DNA from: a phage | DNA: 64,000 bases | Sequence record: PZ445527.1 | Strand: one strand, 5' to 3' | Shown: positions 2,735 to 61,191 of the stretch, one piece after another | Layout: each line of letters begins with the position of its first letter | Position numbering within the stretch: the first letter of the stretch is position 1 | The notes under the pieces: model-generated | Database searches by the model: none | What the model was told of the DNA's origin: nothing | The model's input: only the letters and a program-made list of their open reading frames with translations | Translations under genes and position numbers: made by a program

Positions 2735-3166
2735 TTACCAATCGTTAACAACACCAGAGAACTCAGAAGCAAAAACTTTCTCAAATTTTTCTGCAATTTC
2801 AGGATGATCCTTACAGATCAACTCAATACATGCTTCTGGAGTCATTCCTTCGTCTTCAGGATCACCATAATACTTGTCCCAAAGATCGTCAGGGATGATG
2901 TGCTCTGCCAAATCTTGGAAAGAGATTAGCTGATAACGTTCTGCTTCCTCAGGGATAAGGATTTCACAAAGATCTTTATCTATATCACTACGGTAATCAG
3001 CAATTAGCAGGGCATTGCAAGCATGACACTCCCAAACCATCAAGCGTTCAGAAATAGAATTAGACTTATCCTGAATGTAGGACTGAAACAGGGTTCGAAA
3101 AGTAGCTTTAACTTGTTCAAACTTATCTGCTGCTGCAAAAACTAGAGCTTTATCAACTTTGTTCAT
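2735..3166 (-). CDS. hypothetical protein (143 aa)
   Basis: First ORF after promoter 3197..3225, with RBS GAGAAGGAAA. Confidence 0.6.
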   Translation of the reverse strand: MNKVDKALVFAAADKFEQVKATFRTLFQSYIQDKSNSISERLMVWECHACNALLIADYRSDIDKDLCEILIPEEAERYQLISFQDLAEHIIPDDLWDKYYGDPEDEGMTPEACIELICKDHPEIAEKFEKVFASEFSGVVNDW

Positions 3167-3196
3167 TTTGTTTCCTTCTCATCAATTTATAAAGTA

Positions 3197-3225
3197 ATTA
3201 TACAGAAACTTAGGCATTTTAGCAA
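3197..3225 (-). promoter_or_regulatory. T5-type early promoter (TTGCTA-17-TATAAT)
   Basis: Hexamers and spacer read directly; leader is TTATAAATTGATGAG. Confidence 0.75.
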
Positions 3226-3341
3226 ATAAAACTTTTAATTAAAATGCCTAATCCTGTACTAATAGCAATACAAATGATTATAAGTATTGCTACTGCTTGT
3301 ATGACTCGTTTAATGATAACCTCAGCTATATACTTAGACAT
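3219..3341 (-). CDS. possible small membrane protein (40 aa, not in the ORF track)
   Basis: MSKYIAEVIIKRVIQAVAILIIICIAISTGLGILIK has one TM helix. It overlaps the end of the phosphoesterase gene by 8 nt. Confidence 0.3.
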   Translation of the reverse strand: MSKYIAEVIIKRVIQAVAILIIICIAISTGLGILIKSFIC

Positions 3342-3855
3342 TTAACATCCAGCTAGTTTTATCATGGGAAGTATACTTACCACTCATGATGTCTTCCAGG
3401 CGTACTGGTGATTTTGCATACTCTACACAAACGTTAATATAACGAGGGTCTCCCATTAACTCAAAGTGAGTATGCCCATGTAAGTTCTTTTTACCCCTCA
3501 GCTCCTCTGGATGTACTGGAGCATGGGAAAGCCAAAAGTTTTTATACTTAACTAGGGATTGTACATTATCTACTACTCCTACTAAGTCTTTGAAAGATAA
3601 CCCTTCTCGTTCTAAGTCGTGGTTCCCCAAAACTAATATAGTTCTAACATTGCTAAAGAGTTTTTCGAACTTTTCCAAACCATTTCTAGATACAAATGCA
3701 TCTCCTAAAATATAAAATACTGTACGCTTATCTTTCATGGATGTAATAGTATCCATAATAAATTCATCATGCTCTTCCATAGTAGAGAAGATTGGTCTGA
3801 ATTTAGTAATATTTGCATGTCCTAAATGGAGATCACTCCAAAAGCAAACTTTCAT
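3334..3855 (-). CDS. calcineurin-like metallophosphoesterase (173 aa)
   Basis: Metallophosphatase motifs SDLHLGH, GDAF, GNHD and GHTH in the canonical order. Confidence 0.8.
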   Translation of the reverse strand: MKVCFWSDLHLGHANITKFRPIFSTMEEHDEFIMDTITSMKDKRTVFYILGDAFVSRNGLEKFEKLFSNVRTILVLGNHDLEREGLSFKDLVGVVDNVQSLVKYKNFWLSHAPVHPEELRGKKNLHGHTHFELMGDPRYINVCVEYAKSPVRLEDIMSGKYTSHDKTSWMLNV

Positions 3856-12993: not shown

Positions 12994-13023
12994 TTCAAAC
13001 CTCTCTCATCAATTTATAAATAT

Positions 13024-13052
13024 ATTATAACAAGAAAAGAGAGGTTTAGCAA
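13024..13052 (-). promoter_or_regulatory. T5-type early promoter (TTGCTA-17-TATAAT)
   Basis: Hexamers and spacer read directly; leader ATATTTATAAATTGATGAGAGAGG. Confidence 0.8.
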
Positions 13053-13069
13053 ATGAATTATTTCAGAAA

Positions 13070-13931: not shown

Positions 13932-14300
13932 TTACATCGCCTGAGTAAATGTACGACTAATAACGTCGTTCTGCTGTTCACGCGTCAGTGCGTTAAAACG
14001 CACAGCATAACCAGAAACACGAATGGTTAGCTGAGGATATTTTTCAGGATGTTTCTGAGCATCCAAAAGCTGGTCACGACTTAACACATTGACATTTAGG
14101 TGTTGACCCCCTTCAATTTGAGGGGCGACTTCCACCTTGACTTCACGAAAGGATTCGGGGTCAAAGTGAGGTGTGATACCTTCTAGATCCTCAACTAGAA
14201 CTTTTTGTTTAAGTTCACCATCTTTAGAGTATAATTGAATAATCTGATTATTATGAACAATATTAATTACGCCAGATTTAAGATTTTGATATGCTTTCAT
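13932..14300 (-). CDS. grcA: autonomous glycyl-radical cofactor, GrcA/YfiD-like (122 aa)
   Basis: The C-terminal 60 aa ([57 protein letters not shown]) is near-identical to E. coli GrcA as recalled, including the RVSGYAV glycyl-radical motif. Confidence 0.85.
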
Positions 14301-14665
14301 TAGATCTCCCTGATGTTAGAATTTGGCTCAGCTTTTTGTTAACCCAGAAGCAAGATAAAAACTGGAAGGCAGGCTTGCTTTTCTCTTAACCACTAGGCTA
14401 CTTTTGGGTGCTAGCATTCCGGTGAGATTGATGGTCTCGGTTAAGAAGAAAAACACGGGACTTCTGTTTTAACGTCGTGCTCCCGGATTGATGCGACTAC
14501 GTGATTGCTCGCGCTAAGACAATGGCTATCTAAAGTCTTAGCTTCTACATTTATACTCCTGGATAGCATGGAGTTGCAGTCTACTTCCTGCTGTCACGCC
14601 CGGTCATTTATAGAATGTGGACTCTCTTCTCAGCAAGTTCTGGCACTATGGCCTGATCTTCTGTT

Positions 14666-14740
14666 TGGTAGTTAGTAGTGGAATCGAACCAGGTTCCACG
14701 GTTTACAAGACCGTTGCATCGCCAGCAATGCTTTAAGAGC
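14666..14740 (-). tRNA. aberrant tRNA-Thr(UGU)-like gene (probable chimera or pseudogene)
   Basis: Good D arm (GCAT/ATGC), anticodon arm (ACGGT-CTTGTAA-ACCGT) and GGTTCGATTCC box. The 3' T-stem and acceptor strands do not pair with the 5' half. Confidence 0.35.
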
Positions 14741-15132
14741 TATCGTTGTCTTGTTGAAACTCTATTTCTGGCCCTATGCGTAGAGGTCATAGAGTGGCAG
14801 TTAGGGCAGAGAATCTTTAGATTTTCTGGAGAACAGTTAGTTGCATCTCCATCTATATGATCTACCTCAGTTAAAACTGCTCCGTCAATTGGATGTTTCC
14901 CATCCCAACCACATACTTCACAAGCAGTACCACGAGTATCCCACAGCCACTTCCTAACAAAAGGTTTTAATTGTGCAGCTTTACCAGTATAACCAGGTTC
15001 TTCACCTGCCAGCCACTTTAATACTTTTTGCTTTGTCTGGTACTCCTGCTGACAAGCAGGACCACAATACTTACCTGCGGAACCTCTACTTTTAGGTTTT
15101 GTGATTCCGCAATTTAAACAAGTAAACTCCAT
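14740..15132 (-). CDS. HNH endonuclease (130 aa)
   Basis: C-terminal HNH motif VDHIDGDATNCSPENLKILCPNCH plus N-terminal Cys4 pairs. The stop codon abuts the tRNA-like gene. Confidence 0.8.
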   Translation of the reverse strand: MEFTCLNCGITKPKSRGSAGKYCGPACQQEYQTKQKVLKWLAGEEPGYTGKAAQLKPFVRKWLWDTRGTACEVCGWDGKHPIDGAVLTEVDHIDGDATNCSPENLKILCPNCHSMTSTHRARNRVSTRQR

Positions 15133-15534: not shown

Positions 15535-15610
15535 TGGAGCGGCTAGAGGGAATCGAACCCTACTCAGCGAGGCTTGGAAGGCCTGCGACACAACCCGTGT
15601 GCTTAACCGC
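15535..15610 (-). tRNA. tRNA-Gly(UCC)
   Basis: Manual cloverleaf: acceptor GCGGTTA/TAGCCGC, anticodon loop CTTCCAA, T loop TTCGATT, encoded CCA. One T-stem mismatch and a short D loop. Confidence 0.7.
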
Positions 15611-15618
15611 TTATTGTT

Positions 15619-15699: not shown

Positions 15700-15775
15700 T
15701 GGCTGGAGTGCCTGATTCAATCCCAGGCACCTTCGGAGTCAGAGGCCGACGACTTGACAATTGATCTACACCTCA
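15700..15775 (-). tRNA. tRNA-Gln(CUG)-like
   Basis: 76 nt fits standard numbering: acceptor TGAGGTG/CACTCCA, anticodon loop CTCTGAC, encoded CCA. The T loop GATTGAA is atypical. Confidence 0.5.
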
Positions 15776-16531: not shown

Positions 16532-16679
16532 ATTGATGTATCAAGGAATAGAAGGACTTGAACCTTCATGAGTTAGACCATTTAACTCAACCGCTTTTTA
16601 GGGTATATTTCTAGGAGTGGATGTTCCTAGTAAACCTATTCGGCAGTCCCGTCTACCAATTCCGGCATATTCCAAGATT

Positions 16680-16952: not shown

Positions 16953-17191
16953 AAATTCTTTAATTTACTAAGGCTATTAGCTCGGCGTAACTACAGCACC
17001 TTCGCTTCAAGCGGAAGGAACCGCGTCATCTCGCAAACCCAATACACTATTCAGTTGCCGCTGAATCTAGTGGACTAATCTAGAACTTCTCCCGAGTCGT
17101 AGGGATCGTGCTTTTTGGCAGCCAGTCCTAGGTCGAGCTAATACCTTAGTGAATTATGATGAGGATTTCTCCCATATCAATTTATATAAAT

Positions 17192-17220
17192 ATTATAACA
17201 AGAAATTAATCATCAAGCAA
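17192..17220 (-). promoter_or_regulatory. T5-type early promoter (TTGCTT-17-TATAAT) driving a leader RNA and the Ala-Leu-Ser tRNA cluster
   Basis: Hexamers and spacer read directly. No long ORF lies downstream, only a 9-codon mini-ORF and structured RNA. Confidence 0.75.
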
Positions 17221-17238
17221 TTGAGTTTTTCTTGAAAT

Positions 17239-17314
17239 TGGTAGCGGGTTCCAGTACTGCCCTGGACTTACTTAGCTTATGAGACTAAGAAGAACTCTAT
17301 GCCTTCCACCCGCA
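17239..17314 (-). tRNA. tRNA-Met/Ile2(CAU)
   Basis: 76 nt: acceptor (T)GCGGGT/ACCCGC(T), TTAGT-CTCATAA-GCTAA, T stem TCCAG/CTGGA with a non-canonical loop GGCAGTA, encoded CCA. Confidence 0.6.
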
Positions 17315-17940: not shown

Positions 17941-18017
17941 TGGCGCGACTGATGGGATTTGAACCCACATTCCCTCCCGTGATAGGGGAGTACCATTACC
18001 AAGCCAGCCACGGTCGC
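17941..18017 (-). tRNA. tRNA-Asp-type with anticodon AUC (A34)
   Basis: Acceptor GCGACCG/CAGTCGC, CTCCC-CTATCAC-GGGAG, GTGGG-TTCAAAT-CCCAT, encoded CCA. The loop differs from the Asp CTGTCAC loop only at position 34. Confidence 0.7.
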
Positions 18018-19642: not shown

Positions 19643-19672
19643 TCGTTAACTCCTTCATCAATTTATATAACT

Positions 19673-19702
19673 ATTATACCAGAAATTTAAAGCAAAAGGC
19701 AA
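19673..19702 (-). promoter_or_regulatory. T5-type early promoter (TTGCCT-18-TATAAT)
   Basis: Hexamers read directly; 18-nt spacer. Confidence 0.65.
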
Positions 19703-19732
19703 GTACATTTTTAAAAATTCTGTTTGGAGGAG

Positions 19733-20114: not shown

Positions 20115-20189
20115 TGGTGGGTCGGAGGAGAATCTAACTCCTACTCGTTAGCTTATGAGGCCACCGCTTTAACTTTAAGCTACCGACCC
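20115..20189 (-). tRNA. tRNA-Met(CAU)
   Basis: Acceptor GGGTCGG/CCGACCC, D arm GCTT/AAGC, anticodon loop CTCATAA, AGGAG-TTAGATT-CTCCT, encoded CCA. Confidence 0.75.
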
Positions 20190-21976: not shown

Positions 21977-22626
21977 TTTAAGTATTTTTAAGAACTCTCG
22001 TAAAAACTCTTAAAAATACAGACGATACCGGGAGAGTCATAAGTCTCACTCATTAAGTATTTCAAGACAAAATACAGTAACGTCTATTATTTTCCAGTTT
22101 AAGTCAGGGTGACTTAGTGGTTATGTCCTGCGGTATATTGAGGACTCGGTTAGGCTTGGGGTCATGACTTCCCGCCTTTTGCTGCTACTCAACAGGAGTT
22201 ATCGCGAATTACCTGTGCTATTGTGCACCATTAGTGACATCTCTCATGCCAGCATTTCCCACTTTGTGGATAGCTTGAAAAACTACTCCGATACGGAGAA
22301 AGAACTTCACTATCCTAGAATACCTTCTAAAGTTCTTCTTTAGCCTGGACATAGTTAAATCGTAATAAAACTATTCAGCAGACCGGTTGGTTAGTCTGGA
22401 ACCAACTACCGCGTGGTTTAGGCAGTGCGCAACTAACCTCGGAAGCTTTTACGTTAAAAGCACCAGTTATCCAGTTCTTACCGACCGTAGGATTCGAACC
22501 TACATCTTCCACCAGTTACGGCTTGATAATACCAATTATACTAGGACGGCAGTGTTACTACATAAGTGATTTCCACACCCCACTATTTATAAATTAGAAA
22601 AGAATTACTCTCTAATTTATGAATAT

Positions 22627-22655
22627 ATTATACAGAATTTATAAGCATTTAGCAA
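22627..22655 (-). promoter_or_regulatory. T5-type early promoter (TTGCTA-17-TATAAT) driving a 640-nt non-coding transcript and tRNA-Arg
   Basis: Hexamers read directly. The leader has GAGAG but no ORF follows. Confidence 0.75.
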
Positions 22656-22663
22656 ATGAATTT

Positions 22664-23098
22664 TTAGAAAAACTCGCTAGCAATCAAGGCGGCTGTTTTA
22701 CCATCATAACGCCCTGTAAACTCTGCCTTAATAGTTTTCATTAAGAGAGCTTTGGTAATACCTGGGTTTAGCTTAACCAATTCTGCAAAGTATTTACGAA
22801 TTTCAGTTTCAGTTAACTGTTGCAGTGCATAATCATGCTCTAAACGCGCTAAAAGATCTAAGTATTCAGCATCAGGGGTATAGTCAACATTCGATTTTTC
22901 AGCAGCAATCCGTGTATTCTCAATTGCTTTGAATTGTGATTTCAACCAGTTAGTAAACTCCAGCTCAGTTACGCAATCTTTATCAATACGTTGCAGGTCT
23001 CCTAGAACCGTACTTAGATGCTTAACTGATACAGCGTCACCACTTTTGCGAGCAGCTTCAATCAACTCTCGCAGTACATAAAGCATATTCATGCCCAT
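22664..23098 (-). CDS. hypothetical protein (144 aa)
   Basis: TAATG junction with the upstream small ORF. Confidence 0.55.
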   Translation of the reverse strand: MGMNMLYVLRELIEAARKSGDAVSVKHLSTVLGDLQRIDKDCVTELEFTNWLKSQFKAIENTRIAAEKSNVDYTPDAEYLDLLARLEHDYALQQLTETEIRKYFAELVKLNPGITKALLMKTIKAEFTGRYDGKTAALIASEFF

Positions 23099-23268: not shown

Positions 23269-23299
23269 ATTTCGCTTCCTCTCATTAATTTATGAAAGT

Positions 23300-23328
23300 A
23301 TTATACAGAAGTTTAAGTATTTAAGCAA
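23300..23328 (-). promoter_or_regulatory. T5-type early promoter (TTGCTT-17-TATAAT)
   Basis: Hexamers and spacer read directly. Confidence 0.75.
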
Positions 23329-23336
23329 ATAAATTT

Positions 23337-23786
23337 TTAAGTTTTAGTGACAACAGGCTTATAAAATGTATGTCCCTTAATCTTAGTTGTTTTCTTAAAC
23401 TTCTTTGTCCAGTACGGTTTATCTTTACCACTATGGAAGTATAAAGCTCCATGTGTAGGATCTTGTGGTAAATCAACGTAGTATATCACTCTAGCTAAAT
23501 TCTTGGCGGTTTTCCAAGCCTCATCGGTTTTATCAACTTTTGGTCTCTTAGATACCCAAGAGAACTGGTTAGACTGATATACTACTTTACAGTAGGAATC
23601 TGGGAATTTACCGGAGTTTACACGGTTTTTAGTAACATGTGCAATCGCCGTCATTCCCTTTATGCCCTCACCACGACTTTCGAAATAGATATTTTTAGCA
23701 ATGCAATCTATTTCTTTTGCATCGTGCGATGCCTGACTACTAAAGCTGAAGGTAAGGGCAGCTACTAAAAGCAAAGCTGCCTTCAT
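23337..23786 (-). CDS. SleB/CwlJ-type cell-wall hydrolase with signal peptide (149 aa)
   Basis: Signal peptide MKAALLLVAALTFSFSSQA, then a Hydrolase_2-like block CIAKNIYFESRGE...AIAHVTKNRV...VVYQSNQFSW. Confidence 0.75.
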   Translation of the reverse strand: MKAALLLVAALTFSFSSQASHDAKEIDCIAKNIYFESRGEGIKGMTAIAHVTKNRVNSGKFPDSYCKVVYQSNQFSWVSKRPKVDKTDEAWKTAKNLARVIYYVDLPQDPTHGALYFHSGKDKPYWTKKFKKTTKIKGHTFYKPVVTKT

Positions 23787-50168: not shown

Positions 50169-50179
50169 TATAAATGTAT

Positions 50180-50208
50180 TTGCTTTCAACTCAGTTTTGT
50201 TATATAAT
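50180..50208 (+). promoter_or_regulatory. T5-type early promoter (TTGCTT-17-TATAAT)
   Basis: Hexamers and spacer read directly. Confidence 0.8.
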
Positions 50209-50239
50209 ATTTATATAAATTAATGAGAGATATAAATAA

Positions 50240-51946: not shown

Positions 51947-51975
51947 TTGCTAAATGCTTAAATACTTGCTATAAT
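51947..51975 (+). promoter_or_regulatory. T5-type early promoter (TTGCTA-17-TATAAT) for the ligase C-terminal part
   Basis: Hexamers read directly; conserved leader and AAGGAAG RBS. Confidence 0.8.
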
Positions 51976-52005
51976 ATTTATATAAATTGATAAGGAAGAA
52001 ATTTG

Positions 52006-60971: not shown

Positions 60972-60983
60972 ATGATGTATAAT
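60955..60983 (+). promoter_or_regulatory. sigma70 promoter (TTGGCA-17-TATAAT) with an orphan leader
   Basis: Hexamers read directly. The conserved leader and GAGAGAGAAAG are followed only by the hairpin TTCGGA-12 nt-TCCGAA, with no ORF. Confidence 0.6.
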
Positions 60984-61054
60984 ATATACATAAATTTGAG
61001 AGAGAAAGTTTCGGATTGATAAGAAAGTCCGAAGCAGAAAAATAAAAATTTTAG

Positions 61055-61084
61055 TTGCTAAATTCTCTCGAAATCTAGTATAAT
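61055..61084 (+). promoter_or_regulatory. T5-type early promoter (TTGCTA-18-TATAAT)
   Basis: Hexamers read directly; leader ATATACATAAATTCGAGGAG. Confidence 0.7.
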
Positions 61085-61191
61085 ATATACATAAATTCGA
61101 GGAGAAAACAAAAATTAAATTCTTCGATTATGAAAAGCTATACTTACTAGCTAGAGGAAATTCCGACTTAATTATTAGGCTATTCAAAAGA

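Follow-up and report, generated by a model that had tools for sequence, protein, structure and literature searches.

A tRNA-Thr/tRNA-Met hybrid pseudogene beside an HNH endonuclease gene as a probable scar of T-loop-mediated deletion in a T5-like phage

Older examples of hybrid tRNA pseudogenes exist in plastids and bacteria, and classical heat-stable deletion mutants exist for bacteriophage T5. In plastids, such hybrids have been found at the endpoints of recombination between tRNA genes during genome rearrangements (reviewed in PMC12371153). The early region of T5-like phages is variable in its tRNA content, with BF23 lacking 5 of the 24 tRNA genes of T5, and a 4-kb deletion flanked by nuclease genes has been described in the same region (PMC10644984). 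Furthermore, phage tRNA genes can directly follow genes for nucleases. The passages of PMC2330249 that deal with this arrangement discuss comparable cases for T4 segB/tRNA-Arg and the T5 F-Tfl genes, and for segB they consider a cut, made as tRNA-Arg matures, that would separate the last codon from the stop codon; a 2004 study of the arrangement is drawn on here as it is cited in PMC2330249 and PMC3326045. The tRNAs of the T5 family also have a role in the contest with the host, as tRNA-Tyr counters Retron-Eco7 (PMC11555353) and tRNA-Lys counters PARIS (PMC11464382).

The locus described here lies in a window of 64,000 nt, which is the whole stretch of DNA that was analysed, and belongs to a T5-like phage (Demerecviridae, Markadamsvirinae). 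The nearest records, for example HildyBeyeler, are approximately 94% identical over 20 kb, and in this 20-kb comparison all of them differ from the source phage. At 14666-14740 on the minus strand there are 75 nt that read as a chimeric tRNA-Thr(UGU)/tRNA-Met(CAU) pseudogene, as judged from an eight-way alignment with both parents, ARAGORN, Rfam and base pairing. As in the plastid hybrids, a short conserved tRNA sequence would have recombined, the two halves cannot pair with each other and the DNA between the parents has been rearranged. Here, however, the hybrid sits in the tRNA array of a lytic phage, and the event would be a simple deletion between direct repeats instead of an inversion. 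The principle of the hybrid tRNA is not new and is known from other systems; a literature search for phage chimeric tRNA genes gave no directly comparable phage example of a T-loop-mediated hybrid.

With the early-region deletions of T5-like phages the locus shares the same dispensable region, the lower number of tRNA genes and the homing endonuclease genes nearby. Those deletions are known as presence or absence of genes, whereas the breakpoint here lies inside two tRNA genes, and because of this the mechanism can be read from the scar. In addition, the present deletion is small (approximately 0.5 kb) and the phage is not T5 itself, given its identity of approximately 94% to the nearest record. 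The preliminary description had linked the junction to the deletion derivatives of T5. Deletions in the tRNA region of T5-like phages are indeed known (PMC10644984), but this is a different T5-like phage and the link holds by analogy only.

Read on the minus strand from 14740 down to 14666, the hybrid begins with GCTCTTA and AA, continues with the D arm GCAT TGCTGGCG ATGC, a single A, the anticodon arm ACGGT CTTGTAA ACCGT, GGAA, CCTGG and the T loop TTCGATT, and ends with CCACT, ACTAACT, A and CCA. Nucleotides 1-49 (14692-14740, minus strand), which comprise the acceptor 5' strand, the D arm, the anticodon arm, the variable loop and the first two bases of the T stem, are derived from tRNA-Thr; in the eight-way alignment they are 100% identical to nucleotides 1-49 of the HNH-linked tRNA-Thr of HdH2 (HdH2 3460-3508). 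The block formed by the HNH gene and this 5' part of tRNA-Thr is 98.9% identical to HdH2, and 97.5-98.9% identical over the four HNH-carrying relatives. Nucleotides 50-75 (TGGTTCGATTCCACTACTAACTACCA) match exactly, in the same alignment, nucleotides 51-76 of the tRNA-Met(CAU) of an S124-like contig and of TrudiGerster, which reads AGTTAGT...AGTGG TTCGATT CCACT ACTAACT A CCA. Within this tail, nucleotides 62-75 (14666-14679, minus strand; T-stem ACT, acceptor 3' strand ACTAACT, discriminator A and CCA) come from tRNA-Met only and match the 3' end of tRNA-Met(CAU) in all relatives examined. The similarity runs on beyond the gene, and 14500-14680 (181 nt, from the Met-derived part into the spacer) is 94.5-95.6% identical to three relatives.

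Homology to named genes of relatives, which extends over hundreds of bases in each half and its flank, rules out a chance origin. By these alignments, 14666-14740 on the minus strand is a hybrid of a tRNA-Thr front and a tRNA-Met tail, with both parents identified. The preliminary description had noted an intact T-loop box and a 3' piece that would fit a different tRNA (T stem AGTGG/CCACT, acceptor AGTTAGT/ACTAACT), and had suggested alignment with the tRNA regions of T5-like phages as a way to find the parents. The box, GGTTCGATTCC, was found at 14680-14690, the different tRNA turned out to be the tRNA-Met(CAU) of the S124-like contig and TrudiGerster by exact match, and the alignment recovered the two parental tRNAs as well as the segment deleted between them.

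The organisation of this segment is known from the HNH-carrying relatives HdH2, PMBT27, MET_P1_137_112 and the LM 4-14-1 contig, and from the HNH-less S124-like IMG/VR contig, TrudiGerster and HildyBeyeler, in all of which the two parents are neighbours in the same orientation. The HNH carriers show an ancestral-type order of HNH, tRNA-Thr(UGU), a spacer of approximately 70 nt, a 96-aa ORF, tRNA-Ile(GAU) and tRNA-Met(CAU), and the succession of Thr, ORF, Ile and Met is kept in the HNH-less S124-like contig, TrudiGerster and HildyBeyeler. In relatives an early promoter lies between tRNA-Thr and the 96-aa ORF, all genes of the block are on one strand, and tRNA-Met(CAU) is found 0.5-0.8 kb downstream of tRNA-Thr in every relative examined. 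Two records that carry the labels 'Listeria phage LM 4-14-1' (OR848450.1) and 'Campylobacter phage A148' (MG065642.1) hold typical T5-like (enterobacterial) sequence at this locus; either their host labels are wrong or the records are contaminant contigs, probably.

Between the ends of the Thr and Met boxes, the source phage lacks 527-532 bp in comparison with PMBT27, LM 4-14-1 and the S124-like contig, which are the most similar relatives, and 628-824 bp in comparison with other relatives. The lost DNA comprises the 3' strand of tRNA-Thr, the promoter, the 96-aa ORF, tRNA-Ile(GAU) and the 5' two-thirds of tRNA-Met. The 96-aa ORF belongs to phrog_4760 (function not assigned) and has no Pfam match. 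The lost promoter has, in relatives, an A/T-rich upstream region and the form AAATTTAAAAATTCA-TTGCTT-17 nt-TATAATA-...TAAATT, and when matched by eye it fits the promoter consensus reported for T5-like phages (PMC3326045); a generic sigma-70 scan did not flag it, because its -35 element TTGCTT matches TTGACA at only 3 of 6 positions. Synteny in relatives places a glycyl-radical (GrcA/YfiD-like) ORF downstream of this now-deleted promoter. In the source phage this 122-aa ORF (13932-14300, minus strand; Pfam Gly_radical PF01228, 66.5 bits) is the next gene downstream of the hybrid, and the deletion would be expected to affect expression.

It had been proposed in the preliminary description that two tRNA genes were joined through the T-loop box with loss of what lay between them, and the intervening DNA is absent both at the locus and elsewhere in the window. 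A search of the window for a relocated ORF, tRNA-Ile or 5' half of tRNA-Met found none of them, and only a promoter-like repeat recurs. Similarly, ARAGORN called no second tRNA-Thr or tRNA-Ile in the window, with one CAU tRNA left at 20115-20189. As far as can be read from the window, the phage has lost tRNA-Thr, tRNA-Ile(GAU), a second CAU tRNA, the 96-aa ORF and one early promoter.

The megablast match to HdH2 runs as far as 14680, where the last C of GGTTCGATTCC lies, and the blastn match to the tRNA-Met of HildyBeyeler begins at exactly 14691; the crossover therefore falls within 14680-14691 (minus strand), an interval that consists of T50 followed by the T-loop box. The 11-nt box at 14680-14690 has three copies in the window, compared to 0.01 expected by chance, and is common to tRNA-Thr and to tRNA-Met of the S124/TrudiGerster type. 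Among relatives, the T loop of tRNA-Met is TTCAAAT or TTCAACT in HdH2, LM 4-14-1 and PMBT27, whereas it is TTCGATT in the S124-like contig and TrudiGerster. The type of the right-hand parent is defined by the spacer of approximately 365 nt downstream of the tRNA-Met 3' end (14301-14665, minus strand). Its first 40 nt show 1-2 differences from the S124-like contig and TrudiGerster and 6 from the LM 4-14-1 type and, because they are closest to phages with a TTCGATT tRNA-Met, the right-hand parent probably carried TTCGATT as well, which would have given it 11 nt of identity with the Thr T loop. With a tRNA-Met parent of the TTCAAAT type, the sequence shared at the junction would be TCC only, and one extra substitution would be needed. 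T50 (14691) is of the Met type (AGTGG) and lies one base 5' of the 11-nt identity, where a clean microhomology crossover predicts G. A survey of T5-like Thr genes, drawn from IMG/VR and from phage records, showed no Thr allele with a CCTGG T stem, and hence none with a parental T50. T50 may stem from mismatch or heteroduplex resolution in an annealed intermediate, from a later G-to-T change in the dead gene or from an unsampled parental allele.

A 241-nt megablast against 50,697 phage records gave no match that spans the junction, with two-piece matches only over approximately 750 bp, and exact-pattern scans of IMG/VR, JGI metagenome contigs and GTDB genomes did not find the hybrid junction. 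An identical sequence in relatives, which according to the preliminary description would speak against a decayed gene if it served there as a functional, aminoacylated tRNA, was thus found in none of these collections. The event appears to be recent, because the Thr-derived half has no substitution compared to HdH2.

The D arm of the hybrid retains 4 of 4 pairs and the anticodon arm 5 of 5 (loop CTTGTAA), in line with the canonical 5' part and the anticodon UGU that had been described before, and the T loop TTCGATT agrees with the consensus. The T stem has 3 of 5 pairs and the acceptor stem 2 of 7, one of the two being G-U, which bears out the earlier remark that the 3' piece does not pair with its own 5' strands. 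The canonical cloverleaf has an energy of +1.1 kcal/mol in the hybrid compared to -22.3 kcal/mol in the intact tRNA-Thr of HdH2, and the unconstrained minimum free energy is no better than that of shuffled sequence (z = -0.39). A covariance model and a gene finder, both suggested at the outset as checks on the fold, agree with this picture. Against the Rfam tRNA family (RF00005) the hybrid scores 24.5 bits (E = 0.16), below the gathering score of 29, and offers no match that would contradict decay, whereas the intact parents reach 51.7 bits (Thr) and 51.5 bits (Met) and are both called by ARAGORN. Over the window ARAGORN called 12 tRNAs, and the hybrid at 14666-14740 is not among them. Its structure suggests that the hybrid is a dead tRNA gene, which would be neither a good substrate for RNase P nor capable of being aminoacylated, and which would give no stable product.

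Very probably, the locus arose by deletion between direct T-loop repeats, through microhomology-mediated recombination or replication slippage, which left a dead hybrid gene. The ancestor would have carried HNH, tRNA-Thr(UGU), the early promoter, the 96-aa ORF, tRNA-Ile(GAU) and tRNA-Met(CAU) on one strand. Recombination or replication slippage would then have taken place between the T-loop boxes of Thr and Met, which would share all 11 nt (GGTTCGATTCC) given a Met gene of the S124/TrudiGerster type, so that Thr nucleotides 1-49 became joined to Met nucleotides 51-76 and the approximately 530 bp between them were removed. Such a product would keep the Thr D and anticodon arms, with the acceptor stem gone and the T stem crippled. 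The absence of the segment, the interval of the breakpoint and the lost cloverleaf pairing are shown directly, and so is the identity of both parents.

The gene next to the hybrid encodes a 130-aa HNH endonuclease (14740-15132, minus strand; assigned from the ORF, Pfam and PHROG) and ends in TAG, the G of which is base 1 of the tRNA. This shared base had been pointed out in the preliminary description and is equally present in HdH2 (CDS 3068-3460, tRNA 3460-3534). Since the overlap is found in all HNH-carrying relatives, it appears to be ancestral and not produced by the rearrangement. The protein matches Pfam HNH (PF01844) with 24.5 bits (cutoff 21.4) and HNH_3 with 24.9 bits (cutoff 24.8), and PHROG HNH families down to E = 6e-18. 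At an identity of at least 95% the gene occurs in 9 of 50,697 phage records, T5-like genomes numbering hundreds; homologues are found with 73% identity in a Klebsiella T5-like phage and with 58-69% in unrelated large (jumbo) phages. Together, HNH and tRNA-Thr (14692-15132) are 97-99% identical among carriers, compared to 75-94% for the left flank and approximately 85% for the right flank. The HNH gene sits exactly between a DUF7293 ORF and tRNA-Thr, and in HNH-less alleles tRNA-Thr directly follows the DUF7293 ORF. Of the 75 positions of tRNA-Thr, 10 distinguish the HNH-linked from the HNH-less allele; 9 of these are in the anticodon stem and variable loop, the strands of the anticodon stem being ACGGT/ACCGT in the former and GTTGC/GCATC in the latter.

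On this comparative evidence HNH and tRNA-Thr behave as a mobile cassette, and the pattern has the appearance of the signature of a freestanding homing endonuclease gene with a co-converted and possibly cleavage-resistant tRNA allele. The target of the enzyme may lie in the anticodon stem and variable loop region of tRNA-Thr. In relatives, cleavage by RNase P at tRNA position 1 would cut within the HNH stop codon; in the present phage this cut is probably lost, because the hybrid destroys the RNase P substrate. As far as segB and the F-Tfl genes are treated in the passages cited above, the likeness extends to the nuclease ORF directly upstream of a tRNA, whose 5' processing would cut the end of the ORF, and to the sporadic distribution and the co-inheritance of the flanking tRNA allele with the nuclease gene. 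SegB is a GIY-YIG enzyme, whereas the protein here is a small HNH protein.

With these features in mind, the deletion could be seen as a by-product of homing by the adjacent HNH enzyme, a tentative and less likely possibility that would refine the cause within the best explanation and not replace it. A double-strand break in the resident tRNA-Thr of an HNH-less genome, or close to it, would have let in the HNH and Thr cassette; the right end would have been resected past tRNA-Ile, and repair would have been ectopic via the T-loop box of tRNA-Met, not via the Thr T arm. The sporadic occurrence of HNH (9 records at 95% or more), its distant copies in unrelated jumbo phages and its precise insertion between the DUF7293 ORF and tRNA-Thr are consistent with this course of events, as is the boundary of the cassette (97-99%, against 75-94% on the left and approximately 85% on the right), which normally lies at the 3' end of tRNA-Thr and so adjoins the breakpoint. 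The differences between the Thr alleles are also placed as they would be for a target site, and the junction has HdH2 as the closest match of its left side and S124/TrudiGerster as that of its right side. However, the whole region is mosaic, so that little weight attaches to the change of closest relative across the junction, and a plain intramolecular deletion in an ancestor like PMBT27 or LM 4-14-1 would give the same product. The literature speaks for a part of the nuclease: nuclease genes are tied to rearrangement boundaries in T5-like and other phages (PMC10644984; PMC10448857), and a SegB-driven microhomology rearrangement is known from the tRNA region of T-even phages (PMC13096335), although in that escape from Septu a tRNA gene is amplified and here tRNA genes are lost. 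On the other side, homing does not usually delete, because the succession of Thr, ORF, Ile and Met is intact in all five other distinct HNH carriers. The HNH enzyme might have caused the deletion. The wider reading, in which the mobile cassette of HNH and its own Thr allele targets the tRNA-Thr of HNH-less T5-like phages and the hybrid is the relic of homing that went astray and was mended by way of T-loop microhomology, is unlikely.

It is highly improbable that the junction is an artefact of assembly, cloning or a chimeric read. Its uniqueness among all collections searched and its position within a short repeated motif could give rise to such a suspicion, but a repeat of 11-12 nt is far below assembler k-mers and read lengths, so no assembly collapse is expected, and, as would be expected of a simple deletion, the two sides share their orientation and are collinear. 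Several other clean tRNA losses compared to HildyBeyeler in the same genome likewise point to a truly reduced tRNA region. Least credible is a functional non-canonical RNA, be it an odd tRNA-Thr, an anticodon-nuclease decoy with the Thr anticodon arm or a processing signal for the HNH mRNA: the D and anticodon arms are intact, nucleotides 1-49 carry no substitution compared to HdH2 and tRNAs of the T5 family do act against tRNA-targeting host defences (PMC11555353; PMC11464382), but an acceptor stem with 2 of 7 pairs makes aminoacylation and RNase P recognition implausible, the sequence occurs in no other genome searched and thus gives no sign of conservation or selection, the lack of substitutions is equally explained by a recent deletion, and a functional odd tRNA is rejected in view of the missing ARAGORN call, the sub-threshold Rfam score, the unpaired acceptor and a fold as stable as that of shuffled sequence (z -0.39).

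Deletion between the T-loop repeats of tRNA-Thr and tRNA-Met would make this scar a record, at base resolution, of one route of tRNA gene loss in the hypervariable tRNA region of T5-like phages. Gain and loss in the tRNA array bear on host range, because T5-family tRNAs counter tRNA-cleaving host defences; a text search of the PARIS paper (PMC11464382) gave no relevant mention of tRNA-Thr. For annotation, the locus is to be entered as a pseudogene and not as tRNA-Thr, and the phage is to be described as one without its own tRNA-Thr and tRNA-Ile; a tRNA-Lys gene was likewise not found in the window. If the deletion was indeed a by-product of homing, homing endonucleases would be active in cutting back phage tRNA arrays, and elsewhere in enlarging them, and these arrays are anti-defence loci. 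The event is a single and unique one in one genome, and its value lies mainly in the clean mechanistic scar that it has left in an anti-defence locus (PMC11555353; PMC11464382).

There are also several minor observations on the surrounding region. The tRNA genes and tRNA-like sequences are found at 14.6-22.6 kb on the minus strand, and the set is strongly reduced, with the 12 tRNAs called by ARAGORN and one Rfam match at 22479-22550 compared to 23 annotated tRNAs in HildyBeyeler. Absent in comparison with that phage are Leu(UAA), Glu, Trp, Phe, Lys, Ser(GGA), Thr, Ile and the second Met. Several breakpoints of the alignment with HildyBeyeler coincide with the 3' ends of tRNAs. A search for further hybrids in the window found none there, since the tRNAs for Tyr, Met (at 20115) and Asp are alleles that are intact, divergent or mutated. 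The tRNA-Asp at 17941-18017 (minus strand) has the anticodon AUC, a G34A change compared to GUC in HildyBeyeler, and a C6-A67 mismatch in the acceptor stem; it is a gene in decay or, alternatively, an unusual tRNA with A34.

Two further stretches on the minus strand, 15703-15775 and 15538-15611, correspond to a tRNA-Gln(CUG) homologue and to the position of tRNA-Gly(UCC). In the tRNA-Gln(CUG) homologue the T arm has been replaced by a non-canonical one (GCCTGGGATTGAATCAGGC), and the sequence scores 20 bits in Rfam, with no call by ARAGORN. At the position of tRNA-Gly(UCC) there is an allele of quite another kind, whose acceptor stem is paired and which ARAGORN does not call either; its best Rfam match is tRNA-Sec with 30.9 bits, which is below the gathering score of 47. 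Moreover, a sub-threshold tRNA-like match (Rfam tRNA, 22.2 bits) with a good T arm (GAAGGTTCAAGTCCTTC) and a poor 5' half lies at 16543-16612 (minus strand) and may be another tRNA remnant.

The spacer at 14301-14665 also varies among relatives, with lengths of 13, 23, 183, 274-281 or 365-370 nt. It is bracketed by short repeats of the AGATC type, and where HdH2 has AACAGGAGATCTAATG, this phage has AACAGAAGATCA...GGGAGATCTAATG. The spacer has no Rfam match and folds better than 100 of 100 shuffles (z = -2.37), and a 42-aa ORF inside it (14441-14569) has the position of bas27_0139 of TrudiGerster. It could be a small mobile insert, an ncRNA or a micro-ORF.

Finally, the window holds more than 15 promoter-like repeats of 60-80 nt that are 72-82% identical to the lost promoter. 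They include those at 13003-13063, 17176-17242, 19651-19719, 22605-22666 and 23276-23349 on the minus strand and those at 50172-50229, 51965-51994 and 60978-61113 on the plus strand, among others. The repeats have the layout of T5 early promoters, with an A/T-rich upstream part followed by TTGCTT, 17 nt, TATAAT and TAAATT (consensus from PMC3326045).
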